Origin: Candidatus Moraniibacteriota bacterium
Lineage (GTDB): Bacteria; Patescibacteriota; Minisyncoccia; Moranbacterales; UBA1568
DNA: 64,000 nucleotides
NCBI GenBank assembly: GCA_963743885.1
Contig: CAVURJ010000002.1
Span: 177,706-241,705, forward strand
Reading direction: 5' to 3'
Shown: positions 1,003-62,815 of the stretch, piece by piece
Numbering within the stretch: position 1 is the stretch's first letter
Layout of the letters: each line of letters begins with the position of its first letter
Notes under the pieces: generated by a model
The model's database searches: none
Seen by the model: only the letters and a program-made list of their open reading frames with translations
What the model was told of the DNA's origin: nothing
Made by a program: the position numbers and the translations under genes

Positions 1003-1806
1003 ATGAATCGCCCGCACGCAGTATCTATGACGCTTTTGCTTGTCCTATCTTTCATAGGAGTGGCTTGGTTTGCTTTGCGGACAGTCGTTCCGCACTCGGA
1101 GAATCCTGCTTCGGAGGAGGTAGCATCCGTTCCTGAGGAGATTCCTCCTTTGGCTCATCCTGATCCGGTGCCCGAGCCAGTAGCTGTACCGGTCGAGGAG
1201 AAGGAGAAGAAAGAGGTTATTCCGGTATCGATCCCCGCTCTTTCGGTCCCGTTCACATCGCAGGCGCCGTCGGCGAAGTGGGGCGATGATACGTTCCAGA
1301 ATGGCTGTGAGGAGGCGTCACTCGCCATGGCGGCATATTGGATCTCTGGCAAGCCGCTTACGAAAGAGATTGCGGAGCGCGAGATCGTCGCGCTTTCAGC
1401 GTTCGAGAGGAAGGATATCGGCCATGCCGTTGATACGTCGGCTGCCGATACCGCGAAGCTGTTCCGCGGATATTACGGTACGGGGACGGCGGAGGTCCGG
1501 TATGATATCTCGGCTGCTGATATCCGTGCGGCGCTTGCGGAGGGAGCGGCGGTCATCGTGCCGACGAACGGCCGCAAGCTCGGCAATCCGAACTTCAAGC
1601 AGCCAGGGCCGCTCACGCATATGCTCGTCGTCATTGGCTACGATGCAGCGACAAAGGAATTTATCACCAATGATCCTGGGACGAGACTGGGCAAAGGGTA
1701 TCGCTATGGCGAAAAAGTCTTGCTCGGGGCGATTCGTGACTATCCGACCGGTCGGCATCTGCCGATCGCGGAGGAACGGACAGCGATGATCGTTGTTCGT
1801 AAGTAA
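1003..1806 (+). CDS. C39-like (papain-fold) cysteine peptidase domain protein, N-terminal membrane anchor
   Basis: The motif QNGCEEASLAMAAYW resembles the Peptidase_C39_2 catalytic Cys region. A downstream His lies in THMLVVIGYD. An N-terminal TM helix and a Pro/Glu-rich linker are present. Confidence 0.6.
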   Translation: MNRPHAVSMTLLLVLSFIGVAWFALRTVVPHSENPASEEVASVPEEIPPLAHPDPVPEPVAVPVEEKEKKEVIPVSIPALSVPFTSQAPSAKWGDDTFQNGCEEASLAMAAYWISGKPLTKEIAEREIVALSAFERKDIGHAVDTSAADTAKLFRGYYGTGTAEVRYDISAADIRAALAEGAAVIVPTNGRKLGNPNFKQPGPLTHMLVVIGYDAATKEFITNDPGTRLGKGYRYGEKVLLGAIRDYPTGRHLPIAEERTAMIVVRK

Positions 1807-1994
1807 CTGTCTCAATTCTCATGTCGAGCTGTAAATCCGAAAATTTCGAGCGAAAATCCTGAAAAGCGCGAAGGGCTACTATCGTAACCCGACAAGCTTT
1901 GAAGGGTTTGCAGCCGAAATTTTCGGATTTCAGCCGGCAAGCGATATTTTTTCTTTGTTATTCATGCGGTGAGAATTGAGACAGTTACTTGGCC
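1802..1994. repeat. F1 TIR foldback element (MITE-like), copy 1
   Basis: Terminal inverted repeats agtaactgtctcaattctca ... tgagaattgagacagttact. About 80% identical to the copy at 3059. The left end overlaps the stop codon of 1003..1806. The right end runs into gggtatact (-10). Confidence 0.75.
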
Positions 1995-2051
1995 GTAGCC
2001 GGCTCTCGGAAAACGGGGTATACTGGAGACATAATTTTGAATATTCCGCAT

Positions 2052-2426
2052 ATGGGATTGTTTTCTGCTTTTGGCGGGTCTCGGCCATCCCGGCCGTCGA
2101 CTGGCGCATCGTCTTTCGGTCATTCATCGCATCCGTCTCCTTCGGCGAAGCCTGTGGGATCGTCGCTTCATGGTAGGGTATCGGGCCTGGAAATTAAGAA
2201 TCTCCATCGCGGGCTTATCAATAGTCTGGGGCGGACCAAAGGCGAGCGTGCTTTTGCGCAGCTCGCGCCGAACATGGACCGAGAGCGCGGTATAGGGTCG
2301 TCTGGCATCAGCGCGAACGAGGCGCGGGATGCGGTTCGGAACATGGAACGGAATCCGTATGATGGTCTCGACAAGCACGATGCGGCGAAGGTGCAGGAGG
2401 CGCTGAATAAGCGTCTCGACTCGTAG
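2052..2426 (+). CDS. hypothetical protein
   Basis: ORF 1989..2426 begins with TTG inside a repeat element. The first ATG is at 2052 (MGLFSAF...), downstream of a gggtatact -10 at 2013-2024. Codon usage looks coding; no recognisable domain. Confidence 0.4.
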   Translation: MGLFSAFGGSRPSRPSTGASSFGHSSHPSPSAKPVGSSLHGRVSGLEIKNLHRGLINSLGRTKGERAFAQLAPNMDRERGIGSSGISANEARDAVRNMERNPYDGLDKHDAAKVQEALNKRLDS

Positions 2427-2435
2427 TCGGCTTTT

Positions 2436-2990
2436 GTGGCAGGAAAAGAGATTATTCTTCCGGGCGGAGTCGTGTGTCATGCACGCAAGCATCGTCGTGC
2501 GCGACAGCTCAGAATCATCGTACGAAGAGACGGGAGCGTCCGGTTGACGCTGCCGTTTTTCATTCCCTATCGGATAGGTGAGGTGTTCTTGAGGAGTAAG
2601 GAAGCCTGGATCAGGGAACGTCTGGCGGCCTTGCCGGCTGAGCCGGAAGATCTACTGCTTCGGGGAGACGAAGAGGAATACCGTACACGCTCCGAGGAAG
2701 CACGGATGCTTGTCGAGAAGCGTCTTGCGCACTTCCAGCCGCTCTATGGCGTCGCCTGGCAGCGGATCAGTATCCGCAATCAGAAGACGCGCTGGGGGAG
2801 CTGTTCGCGGAGAGGCAATCTTTCCTTCAATTACCGTCTTGTCCATCTGCCGGAGCGGCTCTGCGATTATGTCATCGTGCATGAGCTCTGCCATCTCATC
2901 GCGTTTGATCATTCGCCGAGGTTCTGGGCTCTCGTTGAACGGACGTTTCCGGACTATCGGGAGATTCGTTCCCGGCTGCGCGTTTTGTGA
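2436..2990 (+). CDS. DUF45/YgjP-like (M48/WLM-family) metal-dependent hydrolase
   Basis: GTG start. A HEXXH zincin motif lies in VIVHELCHLIAFDHSPRFW. The size and layout are typical of the YgjP family. Confidence 0.78.
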   Translation: MAGKEIILPGGVVCHARKHRRARQLRIIVRRDGSVRLTLPFFIPYRIGEVFLRSKEAWIRERLAALPAEPEDLLLRGDEEEYRTRSEEARMLVEKRLAHFQPLYGVAWQRISIRNQKTRWGSCSRRGNLSFNYRLVHLPERLCDYVIVHELCHLIAFDHSPRFWALVERTFPDYREIRSRLRVL

Positions 2991-3058
2991 CAGCCGGACC
3001 TGATATTTGACATATTTTTATTTTTCTGCCATAATTATATCCTTACTCTGAAACCGAT

Positions 3059-3251
3059 AAGTAACTATCTCAAATCTCATGTTTTGAGAAAACATTCAAA
3101 TTTCGTGATAGAAAGCGTGAAAAGCGAGAAGGGCTATTAGTAATAACCCGACGAGCTTTGAAGGGTTTCTAGCCGAAATTTTGATGTTTTATCAGACAAG
3201 CCCCGGTTTTTGTCTTAACGCGGGCGGTGAGATTTGAGCTAGTTACTAAGG
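3059..3251. repeat. F1 TIR foldback element, copy 2
   Basis: TIRs agtaactatctcaaatctca ... tgagatttgagctagttact. Conserved core gaaaagcgagaagggctattagtaataacccgacgagctttgaagggtttctagccgaaatttt. Confidence 0.75.
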
Positions 3252-3338
3252 TTTCGTTATCCTTTCTTTGAGCCGGGAGCCATGCTCCGCGATCTCTCCG
3301 AGGGGAGAGAGAAGGCTTAAATCAGTAACATTTGAAAA

Positions 3339-9417: not shown

Positions 9418-10119
9418 ATGACCGACGAGATTAGGAAGAGATTTACCATCGTTGCTGATGATTATGGGATTCGCCAGACGGCGGAGCCTATCTTGCGTTT
9501 GGTGCGCGAGGGCAAGATCGATCGGGTCGCGGTGCTCATCCACTATGTCTCCGCCGAGCAGGCAGCAGCGCTCCTTGCGACCGGTGTGAAGATCGATCTC
9601 CATCTCGAGCTCATGGACATGATCCAAAGTGGCAAGAAGGTGCGGGAGAGTGCACTCTGGCGCATCATAAAATTTTCTCTCCGGCTCCTGGTTGGCCGGG
9701 TGACGGTCCGTAAGGCCGAGGAAGAATGGCGCTCGCAGATCGAGCGTTTCCGCGAGCGTTTCGGACGGTTGCCGGATGGGATCAATTCGCACGAGCATGT
9801 TCATTTCTTTCCGCCGTTCACCAAGCTCTTTTTCCGGATTGCGGGGGAATACGGCATCGGGCATGTCCGTTTCAGCACGGACGGCCTGATGCTTGATCGG
9901 CATGTTGCGCTCGTCGGCAAGGTGCTTTCCCTTTTGCGCAATCGTTCCCTTTCGCGCTTGGCTTCATCCGGAGTTATCACTTCCCGCTATCTCGTGAACC
10001 TCGACTGGCTGCCGGACTTTCCGGCCTTTGTCGCCAATCTCGGCGATGAGGACAATATCGAGCTGGTCGTCCATCCCGAGCGCGAGGAGGAATACCGCAC
10101 ACTGCTTGACTACTTCTAA
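9418..10119 (+). CDS. ChbG/HpnK (YdjC-like) carbohydrate deacetylase family protein
   Basis: FTIVADDYGI, NSHEHVH and the size match the YdjC family (NADDFG...DSHHHVH pattern). Confidence 0.75.
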   Translation: MTDEIRKRFTIVADDYGIRQTAEPILRLVREGKIDRVAVLIHYVSAEQAAALLATGVKIDLHLELMDMIQSGKKVRESALWRIIKFSLRLLVGRVTVRKAEEEWRSQIERFRERFGRLPDGINSHEHVHFFPPFTKLFFRIAGEYGIGHVRFSTDGLMLDRHVALVGKVLSLLRNRSLSRLASSGVITSRYLVNLDWLPDFPAFVANLGDEDNIELVVHPEREEEYRTLLDYF

Positions 10120-10335
10120 CGTAACTCTCTCAAATCTCACCGCTAGTTATAGAAGAAACGCGAGGAGTGCTTGTCCGTAAAAATCACTCCCGTTCCGGCT
10201 GCAAAACCCGAAAAGCTTGTCGGGTTATTGCTAATAGCCCTGCCTACCGGCAGGCAGGCCTTCGCACTTTTCGACTTTTTCGCTCGAAACGTGAGCGATT
10301 TTTCCTGGACATGAGATTTGAGAGAGTTACTTGGC
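10120..10335. repeat. F1 TIR foldback element, copy 3 (inverted orientation, with a 20-bp internal insertion)
   Basis: TIRs gtaactctctcaaatctca ... tgagatttgagagagttac. The internal core is the reverse complement of the copy-2 core. It starts at the stop codon of 9418..10119 and is followed by gggtatact upstream of uvrA. Confidence 0.72.
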
Positions 10336-10361
10336 CGGACTCTTGATAGTTTAGCCAAAAC

Positions 10362-10370
10362 AGGGTATAC
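10362..10370 (+). promoter_or_regulatory. -10 element gggtatact upstream of uvrA (10454)
   Basis: The same motif recurs at 2013-2024, 8102-8110, 14157-14165, 22027-22035, 24379-24387, 27989-27997, 39140-39148, 51180-51188 and 56104-56112, each 30-90 nt upstream of a + gene. Confidence 0.55.
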
Positions 10371-10386
10371 TACCTGTTCTTCTTTA

Positions 10387-10437
10387 CCCTGTGAAATTCC
10401 GCCGGTAGGCGGACCAGCGAAGCTGGATTTCACAGGG
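10387..10437 (+). ncRNA. REP-like structured hairpin element, copy A (in the uvrA 5-prime leader)
   Basis: cctgtgaaat[tccgccggtaggcgga][ccagcgaagctgg]atttcacagg: a 10-bp outer stem enclosing two small hairpins. Homologous copies lie at 24341 and 30153. Confidence 0.55.
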
Positions 10438-10453
10438 TTAATGACCAGATACT

Positions 10454-13009
10454 ATGAAAGAATCCAAGAAACACAAGGAACCATCTGCGATGATCTCTGT
10501 TCGTGGCGCCCGGACGCACAATCTCAAGAATATTTCCGTCGACATGCCGCGCAATGCCATGGTGGTCTTCACTGGGCTTTCTGGCTCGGGCAAGTCGTCG
10601 CTCGCGTTTGATACCATCTTCGCCGAGGGACAGCGCCGCTATGTCGAGTCGCTCTCCGCATATGCGCGCCAGTTCTTGAATACGATGCAGAAGCCGGATG
10701 TCGATGAGATCCTCGGCCTGTCGCCGGCCATCTCGATCGACCAGAAATCAGCAAGCCGGAATCCTCGTTCGACCGTCGCCACCATCACGGAGATCTATGA
10801 TTATCTCCGCGTGCTGTTTGCACGTCTCGGACGGCCGCACTGTCTCGAATGCGGACGCGAGATCCAGAAGCTGTCCGTCGAGGAGATGATCGAGATCGTC
10901 TCTGATAAGGTGAAGGCGACCAAGAAGAAGGAAGGCGCTCTCATCATCGCGGCACCGGTCGTGCGTGGCCGCAAGGGCGAGTATTATCAGCTGCTCTACA
11001 ATGCGCTCGGCAAGGGCTTCAGCGAGATCTTCCTCGATGGGGAGCGCAAGAGTTTGCGCGAGCGCGTCATCCTTTCTAAGAATAAGAAGCACGATATCGA
11101 TCTCATCGTCGACGAGATACCGCTTCAGGAGTTCGGGAAGTTTCCCGAGACGTCCGCTGAGCGGCTCTCGGAAGCGGTGGAGCGTTCGCTTGAGGAGAGC
11201 GAGGGTTTGGTGAATATCCGCATCGCTGGGGAGACGCTTGTACTTTCGTCCAAGTTCTCTTGCCCGTATGACGGCTTCTCCTATCCAGAGGTAGAGCCGC
11301 GGCTCTTCTCCTTCAATTCACCGTACGGTGCTTGCGAGGCGTGCAATGGTCTCGGCACCAAGCATTTCTTCGGCGATGAGCCATGTGACGTCTGCCATGG
11401 GTCGCGTCTGCGTCCGGAGGCACTCCACGTGAAGATTGGTGGGAAGAATATCGTCGAGCTGACAGCTATGACCACTGTCGAGGCCAAGGCGTTCTTTGAT
11501 GGTCTTGAGCTCTCTGAGCGCGAGCGGCAGATCGCATCCGTAGTGCTGCGCGAGGTGGGCGGCCGTCTGCAGTTCCTGCTCGATGTCGGCCTCGACTATC
11601 TCTCTCTCGGCCGCCGCGCCAATACACTCTCGGGCGGCGAAGCGCAGCGCATCCGTCTGGCATCCCAGCTTGGGTCCAAGTTGGTCGGTGCGCTCTATGT
11701 GCTCGACGAGCCGACGATCGGCCTCCACAGCCGTGACAATGACCGGCTCATCGCGACACTTCAGGCACTCCGCGATCTCGGCAATACTATCATCGTCGTC
11801 GAGCATGACGAGGATACGATCTTTGCGTCCGACTACATCGTCGATATCGGCCCTGGCGCCGGCGTGCACGGCGGCGAGGTCGTGGCCTCCGGCTATCTCG
11901 ATGATCTCCTGACAGCCAAGAAAAATACATCCGGATCACTCACGCTCGCGTACCTGCGCGGCGAAGAGCGGATCGCTATCCCGGAGAAGCGCCGTGGCAA
12001 GGAGAAAGGCGCGCTCAAGGTCCGCGGTGGCAATCTCTACAATATCAAGGGCATGGATCTCGATATCCCGCTCGGCCGCTTCGTCGCGATCACGGGCGTA
12101 TCCGGTTCGGGCAAGTCGACGCTCATGTATGAAATCGTCCACAAGAATCTCCAGGTTCGCCTCGATCGTCGCTATCGTGACAACAAGACGTTCAATTGCC
12201 AAGCATTCTCTGGATCGGAATATCTTTCCCGTGCCGTGCTCATCGATCAGAGCCCGATCGGTCGTACGCCGCGGTCCAACCCGGCGACGTATACCGGCGC
12301 GTGGACACATGTCCGCGATATGTTCGCTGCGACCGAGGAGGCCCGTGTGCGCGGCTGGAAGGCCGGCCGCTTCTCGTTCAACCGTCCCGGCGGACGCTGC
12401 GAGACGTGCGAGGGCAACGGTTTCATCGCGGTGGAGATGCACTTCTTGCCGACAGTCTATGTGGAGTGCGATGTCTGCAATGGCAAGCGCTTCACCAAAG
12501 AGACACTCGAAGTGAAGTACAAGCACAAGAGTGTCTATGACGTGCTTGAGATGACGATTGAGGAAGCGTACGCGTTCTTCTTCGATATTCCAGCGATCGC
12601 TGACCGGCTCAAGACCTTGAATGAAGTGGGCCTCGGCTACCTCAAGCTCGGCCAGAGCGCGACCACACTTTCGGGTGGCGAGGCGCAGCGCGTGAAGATC
12701 TCAAGCGAACTCTATCGCCAGCATGTCGAGCGCACTATCTACCTCCTCGACGAACCGACCATCGGGCTCCACTACGAGGATGTGAAGAAGCTTATAGAGA
12801 TCCTCGATCGCCTCGTGCAGAAGGGGAATACCGTCCTTGTCATCGAGCACAATATGGATCTCATCAAGTCTGCTGACTACGTGATCGATATCGGTCCCGA
12901 AGGCGGCGTCGGCGGCGGTCAGGTCGTCGCCTACGGCACGCCGGAAGAAGTCTCGCTCAAGAAGGCTTCGCATACGGGGATGTATCTCCGCAGAGTGCTC
13001 AAGCGCTAG
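10454..13009 (+). CDS. uvrA: excinuclease ABC subunit A paralog lacking the insertion domain (UvrA, 851 aa)
   Basis: Two ABC modules ([10 protein letters not shown] / [18 protein letters not shown] x2) and zinc-finger Cys pairs are present. Compared with the second uvrA in the window, about 100 aa are missing between [16 protein letters not shown] and CDVCHGSRL (the insertion domain). The UvrB-binding-domain-like segment is retained. Confidence 0.93.
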
Positions 13010-22740: not shown

Positions 22741-22887
22741 TAGCTGAACGGAGTGCAGGCTCGCTTCGGCAGAGTTTCAGCGAGGCGAGTAAAATCGGGT
22801 CGAATACCCCGCGGCTTGCTCGCCTCGATTCGAGTCGAAGCTGGCCCGCCTAAGACCGGAACTTACTCCGGGGCGAATGCCATTTAT

Positions 22888-25831: not shown

Positions 25832-25865
25832 GTGTCATAATTCCGCGGCCGCGGAATTATGACAC
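25832..25865. repeat. 34-bp perfect palindrome P1 (gtgtcataattccgcggccgcggaattatgacac)
   Basis: A perfect inverted repeat with the sequence gcggccgc at its centre. An identical copy lies at 26617. Confidence 0.85.
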
Positions 25866-25989
25866 GGCGCTAAGAAACGATACACGCTATTTTCTATGAT
25901 GGAATATGAGGGTAAGATAGAGGTAAGATGGAGATAAGACGGGTATAGGGAGAGGTAAGAATGTGGGTGGATAGGATAAGCAGAAGCAT

Positions 25990-26625
25990 ATGTATAAATT
26001 CGGCCCGGTACAACAGAAGATCCTTCTTTTGTTAGTCGGAGGTATCGCGCTTGGATTGGAGACGTCATCAATTCGGTACTATCGGAAGCTGGGGATGCTG
26101 ATGAAGGACCTGAAGGAGATCGATGCTCGCAATTTGCGTCGCTCGATGGGACGTTTGTGTCTGCAGAAGCTTGTGGAGGAAGTGTACCTTCCCGACGGTT
26201 CGTTCAAGCTGGTCTTGACGGAGGCGGGGAAACGGCAGGCGCGTATCCAGCTTCTTTTCGGTAAATCAATCCGTTTCCGGAATCCGAAGCGTTGGGATAA
26301 GAAGTGGCGCATCGTTATGTTCGATATCCCAGAAAAGGAGAAGAAGTTCCGCGATATCTTACGCGAACACCTGCGCGAATTGAGATTTTATAAGCTGCAG
26401 CATAGTGTCTTCGTGTCCCCGTATCCGTGCGAGAAGCCGCTGTTGGAGTTGGCGGCCCTCTATAAGGCGGGGCCGTATGTAAGGGTAGTGACGGCCGAGC
26501 GGATAGATAACGAAGAGAAGCTCAAGGACCATTTCTTCCGTTCGAAGCCTGTGAAATCGAAAAAATCTTTGAAATCCGCGAAGCTTTCAAAAAGAAAAAA
26601 CAGTTCAAAAAATTCCGTGTCATAA
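25990..26625 (+). CDS. PaaX-like transcriptional regulator (N-terminal wHTH plus Cas2-like-fold C-terminal domain)
   Basis: WRIVMFDIPEKEKKFRDILREHLRELRFYKLQHSVFVSP is the Cas2-like fold of the PaaX C-terminal domain. Its stop codon lies inside a 34-bp perfect palindrome. Lys/Ser-rich tail. Confidence 0.5.
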   Translation: MYKFGPVQQKILLLLVGGIALGLETSSIRYYRKLGMLMKDLKEIDARNLRRSMGRLCLQKLVEEVYLPDGSFKLVLTEAGKRQARIQLLFGKSIRFRNPKRWDKKWRIVMFDIPEKEKKFRDILREHLRELRFYKLQHSVFVSPYPCEKPLLELAALYKAGPYVRVVTAERIDNEEKLKDHFFRSKPVKSKKSLKSAKLSKRKNSSKNSVS

Positions 26626-26650
26626 TTCCGCGGCCGCGGAATTATGACAC
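26617..26650. repeat. 34-bp perfect palindrome P2 (identical to P1)
   Basis: It contains the stop codon of the PaaX-like gene (…aattccgtgtcaTAA…). A T-rich run follows. Confidence 0.85.
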
Positions 26651-26696
26651 GTGTTTTCTATAATGAAATATCGTTTTATCCTTAACAGGAACGGGT

Positions 26697-26985: not shown

Positions 26986-27019
26986 GTAACATAATTCCAC
27001 GGTCGTGGAATTATGTTAC
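26986..27019. terminator. palindrome P3 (variant of P1/P2) plus T-run: likely bidirectional terminator
   Basis: gtaacataattccacggtcgtggaattatgttac followed by tttttgttttg. It lies between the convergent genes 26697..26972 (+) and 27095..27901 (-). Confidence 0.6.
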
Positions 27020-27094
27020 TTTTTGTTTTGAGGATTTTTGATAAGAAAAAACCGCCGCACAGCTTGGCTGGCGACGGCGTTGTGCCCGGGGTGG

Positions 27095-30152: not shown

Positions 30153-30201
30153 CTCATGAAATCCGACTTTGTCGGTCCGCCTATTGGCGGAATTTCATAG
30201 G
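30153..30201 (-). ncRNA. REP-like hairpin element, copy C (reverse orientation)
   Basis: The reverse complement reads cctatgaaat[tccgccaataggcgga][ccgacaaagtcgg]atttcatgag. The second inner hairpin, ccagc/gctgg in A, becomes ccgac/gtcgg here, which is a compensatory change. Confidence 0.55.
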
Positions 30202-43861: not shown

Positions 43862-44170
43862 GCGGCGCCGGCAGAAACAGGGAGAAGGGCTCATAGAGCT
43901 CTCCTCCCTTTCTTTTTTGCATAACGGGTATTCAACCCTATGTTCCCGTCACTCGCTCGGTAACGAAAGCTTACTTTCGTTACGCTCGCTCCGTTAGGGA
44001 ATAACGGGTATTTACCCCAGGGCAAGCCCTGGACCCAAGAAACGAACTGATGTTCGTTTCTTTCCGCGGCAAGCCGCGGGGTATTGAACCCGATTTTACC
44101 TGCACTGCGCTCGGAAATGAGAGCTAGCTCTCATTTCGCTCGCTTCGTTTGGTAATAAAAAAGACGCTAG
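43862..44170. repeat. mosaic cluster of palindromic hairpins (BIME-like), copy 1
   Basis: Five successive hairpins: gctcggtaacgaaagcttactttcgttacgctcgc; ccagggcaagccctgg; aagaaacgaactgatgttcgtttctt; ccgcggcaagccgcgg; gcgctcggaaatgagagctagctctcatttcgctcgc. They are interspersed with gggtatt(c/t)a(a)ccc direct motifs. Confidence 0.65.
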
Positions 44171-45369: not shown

Positions 45370-46839
45370 ATGCCGAAGCTCTGGGAAAAATCAGTAACGC
45401 TCGAAGCGTTTAAGAAAAAAAACAGGCTACCGGAAGTGCCGGGAGTGTATTTTTTCTTGGGAAAGAAGAAGGAGGTCCTCTATATCGGCAAGGCGACGAT
45501 TCTTCGTGACCGGGTGAAGAGCTATTTCTCGCAGGACATCATGGAGACGCGCGGGCCGAAGATTGCTCTTATGCTCGGGAAGATCCGGTCCATCGCGTAT
45601 CGGAAGACTGATTCGGTGCTTGAGGCGCTCATCCTCGAGACCAATCTCATCAAGGAGCATCAGCCGTCGTACAATACCGACCAGAAGGATGATAAGAGCT
45701 ACAATCATGTCGTCATCACGGATGAACTGTTCCCGCGCGTCTTGGTCATAAGAGGAAGAGATTTAGAAAAATATCCTCCTGTCATTCCCGCGAAGGCGGG
45801 AATCCAGAAAAAGAAATCCTGGATCCCGGGTCAAGCCCGGGATGACATAAGAATAAAATATTCATTCGGGCCGTTCCCATCGGGTGGCGGATTGCGTGAA
45901 GCGATGAAGATCGTGCGGAGGCTTTTCCCATATCGGGATACGTGCGTGCCAACGGACAGTCAACAGTCAACAGCTAACAGTCAACAGCGAACAGAGAACA
46001 ATCAGCAGTCAACAGCGAACAGAGAACAATCAGCAGTCAACAGTCAGCAGCTAATAGTTAGCAATGAACAAAAAGCAGTCATCAGTCAACGAAGAAAAAA
46101 GGCCGTCCCTCAAGCGTGTTTTAATAGGCAGATTGGTCTGTGTCCGGGAGTATGTACTGGTGAGATATCCGCTAAGGAATATGCACGGATAATCAATCAT
46201 ATCCGGCTGTTCTTCGAAGGACGGAAAAGTATGCTGGTGAAGCGGCTCGAGCGCGAGATGAAGGCGGCTGCCAAGGCGCTCGAGTTTGAGCGGGCTGGCG
46301 AGATCAAGAAGACGCTTTTCGGTCTGCAGCATATCCAGGATATGGCGCTTGTGAAGAATGACGAACGACTCACGACTCACGACTCACGACAGGGAGTGCG
46401 GATTGAAGCGTATGATGTGGCGCATCTCATGGGAGAGGCGTCGGTCGGTGTGATGACGGTCGTTTCCGGAAGTTATGCGGATACCGATGAGTATCGGCAG
46501 TTCAGGTTGCGAGGGGATCATAAGGGCAATGATCTCGCAGCGCTCGAGGAAATATTGTTCCGCCGCCTGAAGCATCCTGAGTGGGGACGGCCTGATGTCA
46601 TTGCGGTTGATGGATCATTCCTCCAGCTCGGCGTCGCTGAGCGCCTTTTTGACGGACTTCCTGAGAAGCCGCTTCTGGTTGGCGTTGTGAAGGACGCGCG
46701 ACACAAGGCGAAGGAGATCATCGGGTTGCCGGCGGGCTTCGCTCGGCTTGAGACTGATATATTGCTCGCGAATAACGAGGCACACCGCTTCGCTATCGCT
46801 TTTCATCGCAAGCGTCGCGGGAAGGAATTCTTGAAGTAA
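45370..46839 (+). CDS. uvrC: excinuclease ABC subunit C (UvrC), short form with two in-frame repeat insertions
   Basis: GIY-YIG domain (GVYFFLGKKKEVLYIGKA), Cys motif FPYRDTC ... CFNRQIGLCPGVC, UVR domain (EMKAAAKALEFERAGEIKK) and the RNase H-like endonuclease domain (RIEAYDVAHLMGEA). The C-terminal HhH2 domain is absent or short. Confidence 0.92.
   Translation: MPKLWEKSVTLEAFKKKNRLPEVPGVYFFLGKKKEVLYIGKATILRDRVKSYFSQDIMETRGPKIALMLGKIRSIAYRKTDSVLEALILETNLIKEHQPSYNTDQKDDKSYNHVVITDELFPRVLVIRGRDLEKYPPVIPAKAGIQKKKSWIPGQARDDIRIKYSFGPFPSGGGLREAMKIVRRLFPYRDTCVPTDSQQSTANSQQRTENNQQSTANREQSAVNSQQLIVSNEQKAVISQRRKKAVPQACFNRQIGLCPGVCTGEISAKEYARIINHIRLFFEGRKSMLVKRLEREMKAAAKALEFERAGEIKKTLFGLQHIQDMALVKNDERLTTHDSRQGVRIEAYDVAHLMGEASVGVMTVVSGSYADTDEYRQFRLRGDHKGNDLAALEEILFRRLKHPEWGRPDVIAVDGSFLQLGVAERLFDGLPEKPLLVGVVKDARHKAKEIIGLPAGFARLETDILLANNEAHRFAIAFHRKRRGKEFLK
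45781..45846 (+). repeat. 66-bp palindromic element inserted in-frame in uvrC (translates as VIPAKAGIQKKKSWIPGQARDD)
   Basis: gtcattcccgcgaaggcgggaatccag ... ctggatcccgggtcaagcccgggatgac: two inverted similar halves, each itself a hairpin. It replaces the roughly 8-aa loop that E. coli UvrC has between the GIY-YIG domain and FGPFP. Confidence 0.65.
45957..46095 (+). repeat. tandem repeat block inside uvrC (28-bp unit x2 perfect, plus degenerate cagtcaacag sub-repeats)
   Basis: cagtcaacagcgaacagagaacaatcag occurs twice in tandem at about 45978-46033. The block is read as QQSTANSQQRTENNQQSTANREQSAVNSQQ and expands the loop inside the UvrC Cys motif from about 11 to about 57 aa. Confidence 0.8.
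46366..46388 (+). repeat. heptamer tandem repeat (cgactca)x3 inside uvrC
   Basis: cgactcacgactcacgactcacgac encodes TTHDSR. Confidence 0.8.
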
Positions 46840-47037: not shown

Positions 47038-47305
47038 TTTGTATTTTGTAGAGACTTCATTCTGAAGCCTTTCCCGAGGCCAGAATCTTCCGGAGAAACT
47101 CTGGAGTCCGAGCGGGCACGGTTCCGAAGGAGAGCAAGGACGGAAGGTAATGGGACCGCCACGCCGGGGCGGGACCATGATTCTCCGGAAGGTTGCTGGT
47201 CCGAGTGGGAAGGCGAGTCGCGGCAGGAGTCTTTACAGCATCTTAAAAAGAGAGTACACTGGAAAGCAATTCTGCGTTTTTCCATCCTTCCAAGAACAAC
47301 GCCCT

Positions 47306-50104
47306 ATGTCAGGCAAGAAATCGGTGATTGAGGTACGCGGCGCGCGGGTCAACAATCTGAAGAATATAGACGTCGACATACCGCGCGATGCGCTGGTTGT
47401 CATCACTGGGCTTTCCGGTTCCGGCAAGTCATCCCTGGCTTTTGATACTCTCTTTGCGGAAGCGAATCGGCGATATGTCGAGTCGCTTTCTTCGTATGCG
47501 CGCAATTTCCTCGATGGTTTTGAGAAGCCGGACGTCGATGCGATTCGCAATCTCTCGCCGGCCATCTCGATTGATCAGAAGAGCGTGTCGCGTTCTCCGC
47601 GTTCGACGGTCGGTACCATGACCGAAGTCTATGACTATCTGCGCGTGCTCTTTGCCAAGTTGGGCGTGCCGCATTGCCCGAAGTGCGGCAATCTGCTCGC
47701 GCGCAAGAGTGTCCGCGAGATCCTCGAGGAGATCCTCCTCTTTCCTGACAAGACACCGCTCGTCTTCCTCGCTGAGAGTCCGCTTTTCGTCGGTAAGACG
47801 GAAAAGGAAGCGCTCCAGCTCGTGAACGGCTGGGGATACGTCAAGGCATGTGTACGCGGCGAGATCATGCCGATCGCCGAGGCTATGGCAGCTGCATCAT
47901 CCGAGTCGGCTGACGGTGTCATGGCAGTGATCGACCGGCTCGTGCTCGATCGTGAGCGCCCAGACAAGGAGCGCATCCTCGATTCGCTCCAGACAGCGTT
48001 TCAGGTGGGCCAGGGGACGCTCCTCTTGCGCGTGAATGGCGATGAGGAGATACGGAGCTACAACGAGGAATACCGCTGCGAGGCGTGCGGCATCCATTTG
48101 CCTGAGTTCACTCCGAGTCATTTTTCATTCAACAATCCAGAAGGCGCGTGCGCGAAGTGCGCGGGCTTGGGCGTGACGCTCGAGTTTGATCCGGAGCTCG
48201 TCATCCCGAACAAGAATCTATCGCTATCTGAAGGAGCGATCCGTCCGTGGAGCAAGATGAATGGCGACCGTCCTGGGGGCAACGGGCATATGGCTCAGCT
48301 GCGCGACCTCGCGAAGCGTATGAAGTTCTCGCTCGATGATCCGATCAAGAAGCTTTCGACGAAGCAGTATGCCGCCGTGCTCCATGGCGAGACAAATGGA
48401 AAGGAAGATGCCTTCCCGGGTGTCATCGCGCTCCTCGAGCGCAAGTATCGCGAGACGCGCTCCGATCATCTGCGTGCCGAGATTGAAGAGTATATGCTGA
48501 CCAAGGTCTGTCCGGAATGCAGGGGGAGGCGCCTCTCGAAGGCGTCGCTCGCCGTGCGTCTTGGTGGGTATTCCATCGATGATCTCGTGCAGCTTTCTGC
48601 TGAGAATTTCCTCTCAGTGTTGCCGGCGTTCCGCACAGCGCTTTTGCCACAGGGGGAGAAGCGCCTCATCGAGCCGCTCTTCCGTGAGATGGATGTGCGT
48701 ATGAAGGCAGTGGAGAAGGTGGGTCTCGGTTACCTTGAGCTCTGTCGGAGTGCCGATACACTCTCGGGTGGCGAGGCACAGCGCATCCGACTGTCGGTCC
48801 AGATGAAGTCTGGTCTTTCTGGCATCATCTATGTTCTTGATGAACCGTCGGTCGGGCTCCACAGCCGCGATACGGAGCGGCTCATCAATGCACTTGAAGA
48901 CTTGCGCGGTGCGAACAACTCGCTCGTCGTCGTCGAGCACGATGTCGCGATCATGCGCCGGGCCGACTATATCATCGACATGGGGCCAGGCGCTGGTAGC
49001 GAGGGTGGCGAGGTCATCTTTGCCGGTACGCCGGACAAGCTCCTCCGCTCGAAGCTTCTGACTGGCCAGTATCTTTCCGGCAAGCGCCAGGTTTCTGATA
49101 AGAAGAAGACGCGCAAGGGGAGCGGTGATTTCATCTCCGTCATCGGGGCGTCCGAGCACAATCTGAAGGATGTCGACGTGAAGCTGCCGCTCGGCATGAT
49201 GGTTGCGGTGTCGGGTGTGTCTGGTTCCGGCAAGTCATCGCTCGTGCACGATATTCTCGCCCGGGCGCTCTCCAAGCATTTCTATCATGCCAAGACTGAG
49301 CCGGGAGCCCACAAGAAGATCGAGGGTCTGGGCAATATTGATAAAGTGATCTCCGTCAATCAGGATCCGATCGGCCGCACGCCTCGCTCCAATGCGGCGA
49401 CGTATACGGGCGTCTTCAGCCTGATTCGTGATCTGTATGCAGCGACCTCAGAAGCGGAGCGCGAGAAGTATTCCGCGAGCCATTTCTCCTTCAATATGCG
49501 CGGCGGACGTTGCGAGGCGTGTCAGGGCGGCGGGCTCAAGAAGATCGAGATGTATCTCCTGCCGGATGTCTATGTGCCGTGCGAGGTCTGCCAGGGGACG
49601 CGCTACAACGCGAAGACGCTCTCTATCGAGTATCGCGGTATGAATATCGCTCAGGTGCTCCGTATGACCGTGTCCGAGGCGCGGCGGTTCTTCCTCGACC
49701 AACCGATGATCGAGGAGAAGCTCCGAGTGCTCGAGGAAGTCGGTCTCGGATACCTCGTTCTCGGCCAGAGTGCGACCAATCTTTCCGGCGGTGAGGCGCA
49801 GCGTATCAAGCTTGCGACCGAGCTTGCCCGCAAGTCGACCGGCAAGACACTCTATATATTGGATGAGCCGACGATCGGTCTGCACTTCGAGGATGTACGC
49901 CGGCTCTTGGAGGTGCTTGAGGCACTCGTCGACAAGGGCAATACTGTGCTCGTGGTTGAACACAACATTGACGTCATCAGCGCTGCGGACTGGGTGATCG
50001 AGCTCGGTCCTGATGGTGGTGAGAAGGGTGGCGAGCTAGTCTTCTCTGGACCGCCGGAAAGACTGAAGGCTTGCAAGAAGAGCTTTACCTCAAAATACTT
50101 GTAA
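47306..50104 (+). CDS. uvrA: excinuclease ABC subunit A (UvrA, full-length 932 aa)
   Basis: Start at [20 protein letters not shown] (ORF 47150 trimmed). Both ABC modules, the UvrB-binding domain and the insertion domain (about 110 aa between GLG and [10 protein letters not shown]) are present. Confidence 0.95.
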
Positions 50105-58927: not shown

Positions 58928-60034
58928 ATGGCTGAAATCCGCTCACGTATAGACCGATTTCGGGAATTGTTTCCCGATGCCCCTACCTTCCGTCTCAAGC
59001 AGATGGAGGAAGCTTTGTTTTCTGATCGGTTCGGGGGATTTTCTGATATATCGAATATACCGCTTCCCATGCGCGAGACGGCAGGGAAGGAGTTGTCGTG
59101 GATGACGGTTTCCGCGGTCCGCGTGCTCGAGAGCGTGAACGGCGATACGTATAAAGCGGTCGTTGAGACGGCTGACCAGAAGCGCATCGAGACAGTGCTC
59201 ATGAAGAACGCTCGCGGACATTTCACGGTCTGTGTTTCATCGCAGGTCGGTTGTGCGATGGCGTGCACATTTTGTGCGACTGGGACGATGGGGCTGACTC
59301 GCAATCTGATCGCTGACGAGATCATCGATCAGTATCGATTTTGGAAGTATTTTCTGAAGGAGCGTCCTGAGCTGCCGCACCTGCCCGCATCGGCTACGCC
59401 GAAAGTGTTGCAGGCGGGGTACATCAGCAATATCGTCTTCATGGGCATGGGCGAGCCGCTCGCGAATTATGCGAATGTGAAAGAATCGATTCGCGCCATT
59501 CTCAAGTATACGGATATCGGACCGACGCGCATCACGGTATCGACGGTAGGGCTGCTTCCTATGCTCAGGCATCTGCTTTCCGATCCTGAGTGGCCGCCGG
59601 TGCGTCTGGCGGTATCACTCCATAGCGCCGATAGCGATACGCGCAAGCGCATGATGCCGAGCTCATTCGATGGTTTTCTTGATGACCTTGCAGCGTGGGC
59701 GGAGGAATATTTCAAACAGTTTGAGAGCAAGCGCCGCCATCTAACGTTCGAGTACGTGATGCTTGCTGGCGTCAATGATACAGCGATGCATGCCGAGGCG
59801 CTCATCCGCTTCGCCCGTCGGATCGGCAAGGTGCGCATCAATCTCATCCCGTACAACTTCACCCCTTCGACAAGCTCAGGACAGGCGGGAGTATATCGCG
59901 GTAGCCTGCCGGGAGACTTCGCTGGTTTTGAGAATAAGCTCCGCGATGCGGGCATCGATGCGACGCGCCGTCGCTCAATGGGCGATGATATCGCTGCTGC
60001 CTGCGGCCAGCTGGTGACAGAAAAGAATAAGTAA
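58928..60034 (+). CDS. rlmN: 23S rRNA (adenine2503-C2)-methyltransferase RlmN (radical SAM)
   Basis: CVSSQVGCAMACTFCATG CxxxCxxC motif, GMGEPLANY, and a C-terminal Cys. The ORF begins with TTG at 58889; the first ATG is 58928. Confidence 0.9.
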   Translation: MAEIRSRIDRFRELFPDAPTFRLKQMEEALFSDRFGGFSDISNIPLPMRETAGKELSWMTVSAVRVLESVNGDTYKAVVETADQKRIETVLMKNARGHFTVCVSSQVGCAMACTFCATGTMGLTRNLIADEIIDQYRFWKYFLKERPELPHLPASATPKVLQAGYISNIVFMGMGEPLANYANVKESIRAILKYTDIGPTRITVSTVGLLPMLRHLLSDPEWPPVRLAVSLHSADSDTRKRMMPSSFDGFLDDLAAWAEEYFKQFESKRRHLTFEYVMLAGVNDTAMHAEALIRFARRIGKVRINLIPYNFTPSTSSGQAGVYRGSLPGDFAGFENKLRDAGIDATRRRSMGDDIAAACGQLVTEKNK

Positions 60035-60070
60035 AGGTTTTCATCTCGAAATCCAAACATTTTCTCGAGA

Positions 60071-60096
60071 CATGAGATTTTGAACAGTTACTAAGG
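60071..60096. repeat. F1 solo terminal repeat (tgagattttgaacagttactaagg)
   Basis: Matches only the right TIR of copy 2 (tgagatttgagctagttactaagg). It directly abuts the ATG of the CapA gene. Confidence 0.55.
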
Positions 60097-60097
60097 C

Positions 60098-61087
60098 ATG
60101 ATATCTTGGAAGACCGCATCCGTACTTCTTTTTTCTGGGGCGATTGCTGCCGTTGCCGCAGGATTTGTATTTTCTGGTAGCAGCAAGCATGCATCTTTTA
60201 CTGCATCGAATATCCCGATTTCTTTTGCTCGACCAGAAGAAGTACCCGCAAAGGAAGAGCCGGCACCGCCCGTCAGCATCATCTTCGGCGGGGATATGAT
60301 GTTTGATCGGTACATCCGGACGACGATGCGACGTCATGGCGACGGGTTTCCACTCGCGCCACTCCAAGAGATATTTCAGGGCGCCGACCTTGTCGTTGCC
60401 AATCTCGAGGGACCAATCACGGAATCGGCATCGGTGAGCGAGACGAGTACTTTCGGGGCGCGTGAGAACTATGTCTTCACGTTTCCGCCCGTGACGGCGA
60501 AGCTCTTGAAAGACCATCATATCGATGCTGTGAGCCTCGGCAATAATCACATTCTTAATTTCAAGGAATCGGGAGTCGAGAGCACGAAGCAGTATCTCGC
60601 CGAGGCGGGAGTTGAGCAGTTCGGTTCGCCGCTTTCTGGGGATGGCCGTGTGCTAGTGCGGGATCTTGGTGGCCTGAAGGTAGCACTCGTGAATTATAAT
60701 CAGTTCGTCTTTCAGGGGAAGGAGAAGGTGTTTGAGGATATCGCGGAGGTACGCCAGGAGGTGGATATCGTCATTCTGTATGCTCACTGGGGGAAAGAAT
60801 ACGAGCCGGAAGAGCCCGCTACTGTCGATCTCGCACACCGGTTCATCGATGCCGGAGCAGACGCTATCATCGGAGCGCACCCACATATCGTAGAAGGGAA
60901 GGAGATGTATAAGGGGAGAGCGATCTACTATTCGCTCGGCAATCTCATCTTCGACCAGTATTTCGAGGAAGATACGATGCGCGGACTTCTTGTCAGGATG
61001 ACGATTGATCCAGAGACGAAAGCGCTCTTGTATGAGGATGTCTCAGTTGTCTTGAAGCGGACCGGGGAGACGGTGCTTTCAAGATAG
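60098..61087 (+). CDS. CapA-family (PGA_cap) metallophosphatase-fold protein
   Basis: IIFGGDMMFDR ... SLGNNHILNF ... ILYAHWGKEY ... GAHPHIVEG are CapA motifs. N-terminal TM helix. The start codon abuts a solo TIR of the F1 repeat family. Confidence 0.82.
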   Translation: MISWKTASVLLFSGAIAAVAAGFVFSGSSKHASFTASNIPISFARPEEVPAKEEPAPPVSIIFGGDMMFDRYIRTTMRRHGDGFPLAPLQEIFQGADLVVANLEGPITESASVSETSTFGARENYVFTFPPVTAKLLKDHHIDAVSLGNNHILNFKESGVESTKQYLAEAGVEQFGSPLSGDGRVLVRDLGGLKVALVNYNQFVFQGKEKVFEDIAEVRQEVDIVILYAHWGKEYEPEEPATVDLAHRFIDAGADAIIGAHPHIVEGKEMYKGRAIYYSLGNLIFDQYFEEDTMRGLLVRMTIDPETKALLYEDVSVVLKRTGETVLSR

Positions 61088-61127: not shown

Positions 61128-61380
61128 TATACGTTGTTAAATTGCTTTTTCTCTCAGAATCCATTTTTCCATTCCGCGACATCCAGCGAACCTGCCTACC
61201 GGTAGGCGGGCATCCCTGACTCTCCGCCAGCTGGCGGACCGTCGAAACTGAGGAGCCACGCCCGACACGCTTGACGTGAGTCATGCGGGCAGGTGTCCGT
61301 TCTGAGAGCCGAAAACAGCGGCTGAACGGCTGGGCGGGAGGATATATTTTTGGAAACGAATGGAAAGAGGATTGGAGGGA
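61128..61380. repeat. diverged F2-like foldback copy
   Basis: ttttccattccgcg (like ttttcattccgtgg of F2), the shared core ccgttctgagagccgaaaac, and right-arm ggaatggaaagagg complementary-like to the left arm. Boundaries are approximate. Confidence 0.4.
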
Positions 61381-62639: not shown

Positions 62640-62815
62640 AGATTCAGTTGTTTGAAAGCATTTTTTATTACCAAACGAAGCGAGTGAAACGAAAGTACAC
62701 TTTCGTTTTCGAGCGAGTGCAGGTAAAATCGGGTTAAATACTCTCCGCCTCTGGCGGAGAGGGATTAGGTCTAGGGCTTGCCCTGGGGTGAATACCCGTT
62801 GTCGAAGTTTTTCTC
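62640..62815. repeat. mosaic palindromic cluster, copy 2 (inverted relative to copy 1)
   Basis: ttttttattaccaaacgaagcgag-[hairpin]-gtgcaggtaaaatcgggtt ... ccagggcttgccctggggt(g/a)aatacccgtt is shared with the reverse complement of 43919-44165. The central hairpins differ (tccgcctctggcgga here). Confidence 0.6.

Follow-up and report, generated by a model that had tools for sequence, protein, structure and literature searches.

Short palindromic repeats at gene junctions of Patescibacteria are very probably a family of miniature inverted-repeat transposable elements

Within contig CAVURJ010000002.1 of a Candidatus Moraniibacteriota bacterium (GenBank assembly GCA_963743885.1), positions 177,706 to 241,705 of the forward strand contain three full copies and one solo arm of a repeat that very probably belongs to a family of non-autonomous miniature inverted-repeat transposable elements (MITEs). 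This whole stretch of 64,000 nucleotides is termed the window, and positions are counted from its first letter. The repeat is about 186 bp long and non-coding; typical copies span 184–190 bp, too short for a transposase gene. It has terminal inverted repeats of 19–23 bp (GTAACTNTCTCAAATCTCATGTC), arms of 20–23 nt are 91–100% complementary, and in a sister subfamily the termini read GTATCT.... The repeats share the characters by which MITEs are recognized, in that they are shorter than about 600 bp and non-coding, end in inverted repeats, carry a target-site duplication, are dispersed in both orientations, and are present in some genomes at sites that are empty in others. The family appears to be undescribed so far and is of an already well-known kind.

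In the window, the terminal 20-mer AGTAACTNTCTCAAWTCTCA is matched seven times at three or fewer mismatches, against 0.06 matches expected. The matches form three inverted pairs (1802/1970, 3060/3228, and 10120/10312) and a lone end at 60073. Copy boundaries were taken from profile matches and then refined from an alignment of the flanks; with the target removed, each copy is one base shorter at each end, and in all three full copies the element proper is bounded by GTAAC...GTTAC. The copies and the small repeat nested in one of them are the following.

1803–1988, forward strand: copy 1 (profile match 1802–1989, profile positions 1–186, 162.8 bits)
3061–3246, forward strand: copy 2 (profile match 3060–3247; profile and terminal repeats)
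10121–10330, reverse strand: copy 3, inverted (profile match 10120–10331; profile and terminal repeats)
10239–10258, no strand: GC palindrome CCTGCCTGCCGGTAGGCAGG, 20 nt, nested at the apex of copy 3
60032–60091, reverse strand: element part of a solo 5ʹ arm (match 60032–60092, profile positions 1–58, 34.3 bits)

Copy 1, with the ends GTAACTG...CAGTTAC, is located at the 3ʹ end of a Peptidase_C39-like gene and is flanked by TAA (1800–1802) and a decayed TTG (1989–1991). Copy 2 lies within the 5ʹ leader of a DEAD-box helicase gene, with the promoter on one side and the start codon on the other, and retains a perfect TAA/TAA duplication (3058–3060 and 3247–3249). Copy 3 separates the ydjC stop codon from the uvrA promoter, and its flanking triplets have decayed (AAC and TTG on the forward strand); it is longer than the others because of the nested GC palindrome, which is a separate small repeat. 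The solo arm lies between a radical-SAM gene and a PGA_cap gene, with TAA (60092–60094) after its terminal GTTAC. Pairwise identity among the three full copies is only 68–72%. The original prediction, made from the letters of the window alone, had described three such copies, the third inverted and with an insert of about 20 nt, and a solo terminal repeat. All of these are present where it placed them; the exact ends of the copies are revised to those given above, and the solo repeat is a whole 5ʹ arm, longer than the 60071–60096 assigned to it.

The target of insertion is evident from the flanks of 74 distinct copies or flank contexts, among the matches listed. On the left, C stands at −3 in 41 copies and T at −2 in 66; on the right, A stands at +2 in 66 and G at +3 in 47. 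In 57 of the 74 copies the two bases abutting the element are the same, compared with about 24 expected from composition by our calculation, and this variable N is T or A in 59. The flank consensus, C-T-N on one side and N-A-G on the other, gives C-TNA-(GTAAC...GTTAC)-TNA-G, with GTAACT...AGTTAC as the element proper. The target is the palindrome CTNAG, and the duplication is its central 3 bp, TNA. A 5-bp duplication of CTNAG was considered and rejected, the outer C or G being found in only 55–64% of copies, whereas every listed copy aligned from one end to the other has the inner G and C; a 2-bp TA duplication is ruled out by the same flank statistics.

Three relatives show the window sites without the element. 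Loci L199, L201, and L203 have the gene order of the window (C39-peptidase, a small open reading frame [ORF], YgjP, DEAD helicase, VTT, UvrB ... YdjC, UvrA); in L199, the helicase protein is 97% identical and aligned DNA blocks are 82–86% identical. A profile search of these three loci finds no element at any of the three window sites, and the intergenic gaps there measure 148, 157, and 56 nt in L199 versus 245, 348, and 334 nt in the window. At the copy 2 site, L199 reads GAAGCCTTGATTCTGGCTTC and the window reads GAAACCGATAA, the element, and TAAGGTTTC; in L199, the point of insertion falls within a hairpin loop closed by a small stem (GAAGCC...GGCTTC). The empty copy 1 site is represented by L203, with GATGCTATACTGGA, reading GCTATACTGGA at its TATACT box, and by L201, with GGTGTATAAT. 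At uvrA, the empty site in L201 is CCCTTGAACAGCTGGCCGAAATAGGGTATACT, reading ...CTTGAACAGCTGGCCGAAATAGGGTATACT, and the ydjC stop codon of L201 falls within CTGAG, fitting the target consensus. Because all three sites are empty in these relatives, the window copies represent lineage-specific insertions into pre-existing intergenic regions. Three further occupied/empty pairs occur elsewhere: a copy in L194 is flanked by TAA...TAA where L184, 76% identical around the site, has a single TAG and no element, and L045 and L007 are reciprocal, each having a copy where the other is empty.

The target also explains the contacts with stop codons to which the original prediction had drawn attention. These contacts are real, at 1804–1806 inside the terminal GTAAC of copy 1 and at 10117–10119 just before copy 3. 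They arise because TNA is itself a stop codon when N is A or G, because CTTAG holds TAG, and because the terminal GTAAC holds TAA. The C39-like ORF, for instance, ends within the GTAAC of copy 1 (…VVRK*), and its counterpart in L199 ends …VVKMP*. The fourth copy had been placed directly on a start codon; the solo arm is indeed near one, but the ATG is at 60098, 5 nt past the solo end.

At least about 85 full-length copies, among the matches listed, are found in other Moranbacteria or related Patescibacteria assemblies, in flanks that are not homologous. A first scan compared the terminal repeat with one genome per species and returned 78 loci, with a chance expectation of about 140 by our estimate; most of its single matches outside Patescibacteria are chance. 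Profile search of the 78 loci recovered 26 element copies or fragments, all in Patescibacteria assemblies (Moraniibacteriota, Peribacteria, 'Patescibacteria group', and several labelled Bdellovibrionales). The second scan used a paired-end pattern over metagenome contigs and is included in the full-length total above. In a single Moraniibacteriota assembly (isolate MFD12002), eight contigs match the profile or the terminal repeat. The relatives also include solo ends and deletion derivatives of 62–104 bp. Insertions are nearly always intergenic or at the extreme ends of genes, in either orientation, and orientation relative to the neighboring ORFs is unbiased (23 opposite/opposite versus 19 same/same). 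No terminal-repeat match was found in the viral contigs scanned, no match in plasmid and phage collections by sensitive blastn, and no tRNA or tmRNA in a scan for these genes. The termini are almost invariant across the 52 copies aligned, and the sharp boundaries within unrelated flanks, the TNA duplication, the empty sites, the solo ends, and the deletion derivatives strongly favor the MITE option that the original prediction had listed, including both of the checks it had proposed for that option, target-site duplications and empty sites.

The host range of the family bears on the naming of some assemblies. The element is present in several titled 'uncultured Bdellovibrionales' (L007, L008, L036–L038, L055, L060, L065, L072, and others). 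The flanks in L007 are 75–89% identical to the Moraniibacteriota contig L045, and those in L008 are 86–88% identical to the unlabelled metagenome contig L079; the Bdellovibrionales label of these element-bearing assemblies is probably wrong. For the window itself, the best database matches of the DEAD-box helicase (97–80% identity) are in Candidatus Moranbacteria or Moraniibacteriota assemblies. Separately, MITE variants of 205–278 bp with nested inserts seem to occur in L123, L180, L139, L097, L184, L178, and L193, mostly from sample Ga0194037. On the same contigs, the flanks of several copies hold other repeats of 40–125 nt that recur many times within and between contigs, and these genomes seem to have several further repeat families.

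Each copy is predicted to fold as one long imperfect hairpin with a stem of about 85 bp and a short side arm on the 3ʹ half. Predicted fold energies range from −76 to −97 kcal/mol, with z-scores from −8 to −12 (copy 1, −94.5 kcal/mol and z −11.7; copy 2, −75.7 kcal/mol and z −8.6). In the alignment of 52 copies, standard pairs fill 98.2% of pair cells, and both partners have changed at 31 of 60 pairs. None of 500 shuffles reaches the observed values, and sliding the partners by one to three columns lowers pairing to 24–49%; covariation, for which the original prediction had proposed a check, is strong. Variation is greatest in the T-rich part of the side arm, and several internal blocks are, like the termini, almost invariant; conserved blocks that are unpaired or bulged include CGAAAA, TGAAAAG, and GACAAGC. 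Since pairing is kept by many compensatory changes, the single-stranded foldback itself may be what is selected.

Movement of the element would be catalyzed in trans by a DDE transposase like those of the IS1031 group, which belongs to the IS5 family of insertion sequences (IS) and whose enzyme is encoded by two overlapping ORFs with a frameshift. The IS1031 group is reported to have a TNA preference and exclusively 3-bp repeats (PMC12016507), and the 3-bp TNA duplication found here is the signature of that group as given in the same source. In addition, the end of ISLrh, a member of the group (GAACCTGTCTAGTATCT; PMC12016507), and the end of copy 1 (GTAACTGTCTCAATTCT) share 11 of 17 positions counted from the terminus, in a single comparison. 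On account of the duplication and this end match, an IS1031-like enzyme is the best candidate mobilizing enzyme. An autonomous partner would bear GTAACTNTCTCAAATCTCA and its reverse complement as ends.

Several observations weigh against identification of the family as MITEs. Screening of the window and of about 0.8 Mb of element-bearing loci yielded no autonomous element that ends in these termini, and in those loci there are no extra terminal repeats outside the known copies that would point to a parent. Inverted repeats of at least 14 nt bounding 0.6–3 kb are only neighboring copies or unrelated palindromes. ORFs present in multiple copies across the loci are only UvrA, UvrB, and other housekeeping genes, these being indirect screens, made without a search for transposase families. 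The tentative assignment to a transposase family comes solely from the duplication and the 11-of-17 end similarity. Only one of the three full copies in the window has an intact duplication, the flanks of the other two being TAA/TTG and AAC/TTG, and the interior is unusually well conserved for a MITE. Finally, there is an asymmetry between the strands that a plain cut-and-paste DNA element does not predict: on one strand, G-U pairs occupy 114 cells and A-C mismatches 18, though by pair position the contrast is weaker (any G-U at 26 positions, any A-C at 14), and the forward strand is the more stable in 52 of 53 copies. As a sign of a selected strand this is suggestive only, because most G-U cells come from a small number of master lineages, the forward strand is the one used for predicting the structure, and the T-rich arm offers that strand more pairing options. 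As to the missing partner, the family may now be inactive or may be served by a rare one, and many accepted MITE families have no known partner.

The original prediction had also treated the copies as carrying or delivering promoters. Three promoter-like sites, all of them ancestral, lie near the full copies.

3007–3035, forward strand: sigma-70-like helicase promoter TTGACA-17-CATAAT, upstream of copy 2 and outside the element
10343–10371, forward strand: uvrA promoter-like site TTGATA-17-TATACT, including GGGTATACT, outside copy 3
2010–2024, forward strand: AAAACGGGGTATACT motif (−10 region) before the small ORF/ygjP operon, outside copy 1

The sequence GGGTATACT occurs exactly twice in the window, 27–32 nt past copies 1 and 3. 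The element is not its source, however, as the −10 boxes lie outside it and are found in L199, L201, and L203 even though the element is missing there; in these three loci, the helicase promoter is found as TTGACA...TATAAT. Homology between the flanks of copies 1 and 3 is confined to TTGGCCG and AAAACRGGGTATACT (local score 26, versus 17.3 ± 3.1 for shuffles), and since the relatives show the motif, it is ancestral promoter sequence. Each terminal repeat does contain an outward TTGAGA, a 5-of-6 match to a −35 box. Among 138 ends, −10-like hexamers stand 16, 17, or 18 nt from this TTGAGA in 2, 3, and 5, respectively, which is background level. With the boxes outside the element and at empty sites, and with no excess of −10 hexamers, the element neither carries promoters nor detectably creates them.

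Two further observations concern these regulatory regions. In the window, AAAACRGGGTATACT (2010–2024 and 10357–10371) is found only before the small-ORF/YgjP operon and uvrA, and its −10 part is kept in relatives. At uvrA, it sits in an inverted repeat, AACAGG-GTATACTA-CCTGTT, and it might serve DNA-repair genes as a common operator. The helicase leader from 3250 to 3338, with copy 2 just upstream, is conserved across species, as the comparison with L199 and L201 shows (TTCGTTATCCTTTCTTTGAG...CTCTCCGAGGGGAGAGAGAAGG...), and may be a regulatory 5ʹ untranslated region.

These data make it very improbable that the copies are cassettes delivering promoters to downstream genes. The recurrence of GGGTATACT past copies 1 and 3 and the outward −35-like boxes are what such cassettes would display, but the position of the −10 boxes, their presence where the element is absent, and the background level of matching hexamers all speak otherwise, as does the lack of conservation in the flanks past the duplication in the 74 copies. 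Even less credible, to the point of being nearly dismissible, is an origin by segmental duplication of intergenic or promoter regions, or as recombination sites such as integron attC or REP/RAYT. Copies 1 and 2 have the same orientation and bracket a two-gene segment of 1.07 kb, and imperfect palindromes after the ends of ORFs resemble attC. However, copy 3 is inverted among housekeeping repair genes, a 3-bp duplication with a variable N is foreign to attC and REP, the relatives hold the same two genes without elements, and the flanks are unrelated save for the 15-nt promoter-like motif, which disposes of the suggestion that whole promoter regions had been duplicated. Individual candidates of this sort were also considered and set aside. 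Integron attC sites form arrays of one orientation that bound cassettes, close to an integrase. The attC cores are RYYYAAC and GTTRRRY, and the termini AAGTAAC and GTTACTT do not fit them; nor do the inverted copy 3 among the uvr genes and the relatives lacking the repeats. REP elements were ruled out by the flank statistics, by the variable N of the duplication, and by empty sites that keep the same genes. Palindromic elements derived from IS200/IS605 (PATE) lack both terminal inverted repeats and a duplication and insert 3ʹ of a fixed tetra- or pentanucleotide; they were ruled out by the long terminal inverted repeats and the variable-N duplication that are present here.

A more serious alternative, though still an unlikely one, is that the copies are dispersed genes for a structured small RNA, each independently transcribed as an RNA of about 190 nt, with dispersal being secondary. 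It would account for the strong covariation, with 98% pairing, for the conserved unpaired and bulged blocks, and for the excess of G-U over A-C on the strand that is also the more stable. It would likewise fit the one orthologous occupied site, shared by L008 and L079, at which the element is 94.6% identical and its 200-nt flanks 86–88%. The long stem foreseen by the original prediction for a small RNA stands, and so does its covariation. The remainder of that idea finds no such backing: reading of the consensus and a scan of the window copies reveal nothing convincing that would serve the element as its own promoter or intrinsic terminator, orientation is random, and there is no Rfam match at gathering score in the whole window, with only chance-level hits in 1750–3300 at E values up to 10. 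Moreover, the window sites are all empty in close relatives, so that no copy is a conserved gene; the window copies are only 68–72% identical, and the duplication and solo ends are transposon features. Compatible with the MITE identification, and somewhat less remote than any of these alternatives although still doubtful, is the proposal that the MITE is also used by the host at the RNA level, as an RNase III site, mRNA stabilizer, insulator, or terminator. The hairpin is kept by compensatory change, insertions must be transcribed where they lie at the ends of genes or, like copy 2, in a 5ʹ leader, and at the orthologous site just mentioned the flanks have diverged more than the element. On the other side, both orientations are equally frequent even though the strands fold unequally, no T-run directly follows the closing stem, and the sites differ between related species.

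The degree of structural covariation is the one respect in which the MITE family goes beyond the ordinary, and it is possible, at rather long odds, that the foldback has a role at the level of RNA or of transposition. It could help the two ends to meet during transposition, or host transcription running through it could give rise to an RNA hairpin that is tolerated or useful, as proposed for ERIC and Correia elements. A more specific and similarly speculative conception is that the element is a mobile structured-RNA module of Patescibacteria, in which one single-stranded form, most likely the forward-strand RNA, is under selection. Such a module might be an RNase III or insulator site that alters adjacent genes, for example through the helicase leader, or might instead take part in its own mobilization. 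A function that needs co-transcription in one sense is unlikely, because orientation is unbiased.

The family has parallels among elements that are already known. Bacteria, Porphyromonas and Neisseria among them, are well known to carry MITEs derived from the IS5 family (PMC4596501). The element resembles MITEs derived from IS5/IS1031 in its small size, its lack of coding capacity, its terminal inverted repeats, and its 3-bp TNA duplication. Unlike IS5-derived MITEs, it is a foldback over nearly its full length with a conserved interior, rather than two IS ends joined; its hosts are Patescibacteria, and no parent IS with these ends was found. Full-text literature searches yielded no relevant account of MITEs from Patescibacteria or from the candidate phyla radiation.

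Other bacterial repeats have a comparable habit. Correia elements of Neisseria and the ERIC/IRU elements of enterobacteria are dispersed intergenic elements of 100–190 bp with terminal inverted repeats and a TA duplication. Co-transcription lets them fold into long hairpins; they are found in either orientation and are polymorphic for presence or absence; compensatory substitutions have been reported for ERIC, and roles as promoters and in RNase III processing have been shown for Correia. The element described here resembles them in its hairpin and intergenic location and differs in its TNA duplication at CTNAG, in having no sequence similarity to them, and in that no promoter role is supported. 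In eukaryotes, Tourist-type MITEs and PIF-Harbinger transposons generate a 3-bp duplication, mostly TTA or TAA, and their superfamily is related to IS5. The 3-bp duplication here, which is biased to TWA, offers a parallel in another domain of life; there is no sequence relationship, and the analogy is one of mechanism only.

The window contains additional repeats. One has copies at 10388–10432 and 30157–30201, with 45-nt arms that are 82% complementary, each hairpin-like (CCTGTGAAATTCCGCCGGTAGGCGGACC...). The first of these lies downstream of the uvrA promoter and ahead of the start codon of that gene, in a stretch of about 60 nt that is missing in L199, L201, and L203, and looks like another inserted palindromic element. 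The 20-nt GC palindrome CCTGCCTGCCGGYAGGCAGG is present at 10239–10258 and 61191–61210, and similar sequences occur in Patescibacteria loci, including L037 and L199 (at about 2101); it may be a tiny REP-like repeat. A dispersed inverted repeat family at 44003–44162, 62661–62800, and 22789–22819 has arms of 31–55 nt that are 82–94% complementary. The 35-nt perfect palindrome GTGTCATAATTCCGCGGCCGCGGAATTATGACACG occurs at 25832–25866, 26617–26651, and 26986–27020, with two identical copies and one at 77%; these copies bracket a 211-aa ORF (25990–26625). Tandem repeats with a 7/14-nt period (CAGTCAA / CAGCGAA ...) extend from 45957 to 46101 within a long ORF (45370–46839). Lastly, two UvrA-like genes, at 10454–13009 and 47150–50104, have DNA blocks in common that are 60–75% identical (repeat families D2–D4, D8, and D10).

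Patescibacteria have very small, gene-dense genomes, and yet they harbor non-autonomous transposons that are active or were so recently. The MITE family spreads across species and lands at the ends of genes and in mRNA leaders. With the family profile and the CTNAG/TNA rule, annotators can mask these repeats, which should prevent false calls of small RNAs and promoters, and the repeats may help to explain assembly breaks in these metagenome-assembled genomes. Furthermore, with covariation this strong, the family lends itself to testing whether MITE hairpins are selected for transposition or for an effect at the level of RNA.

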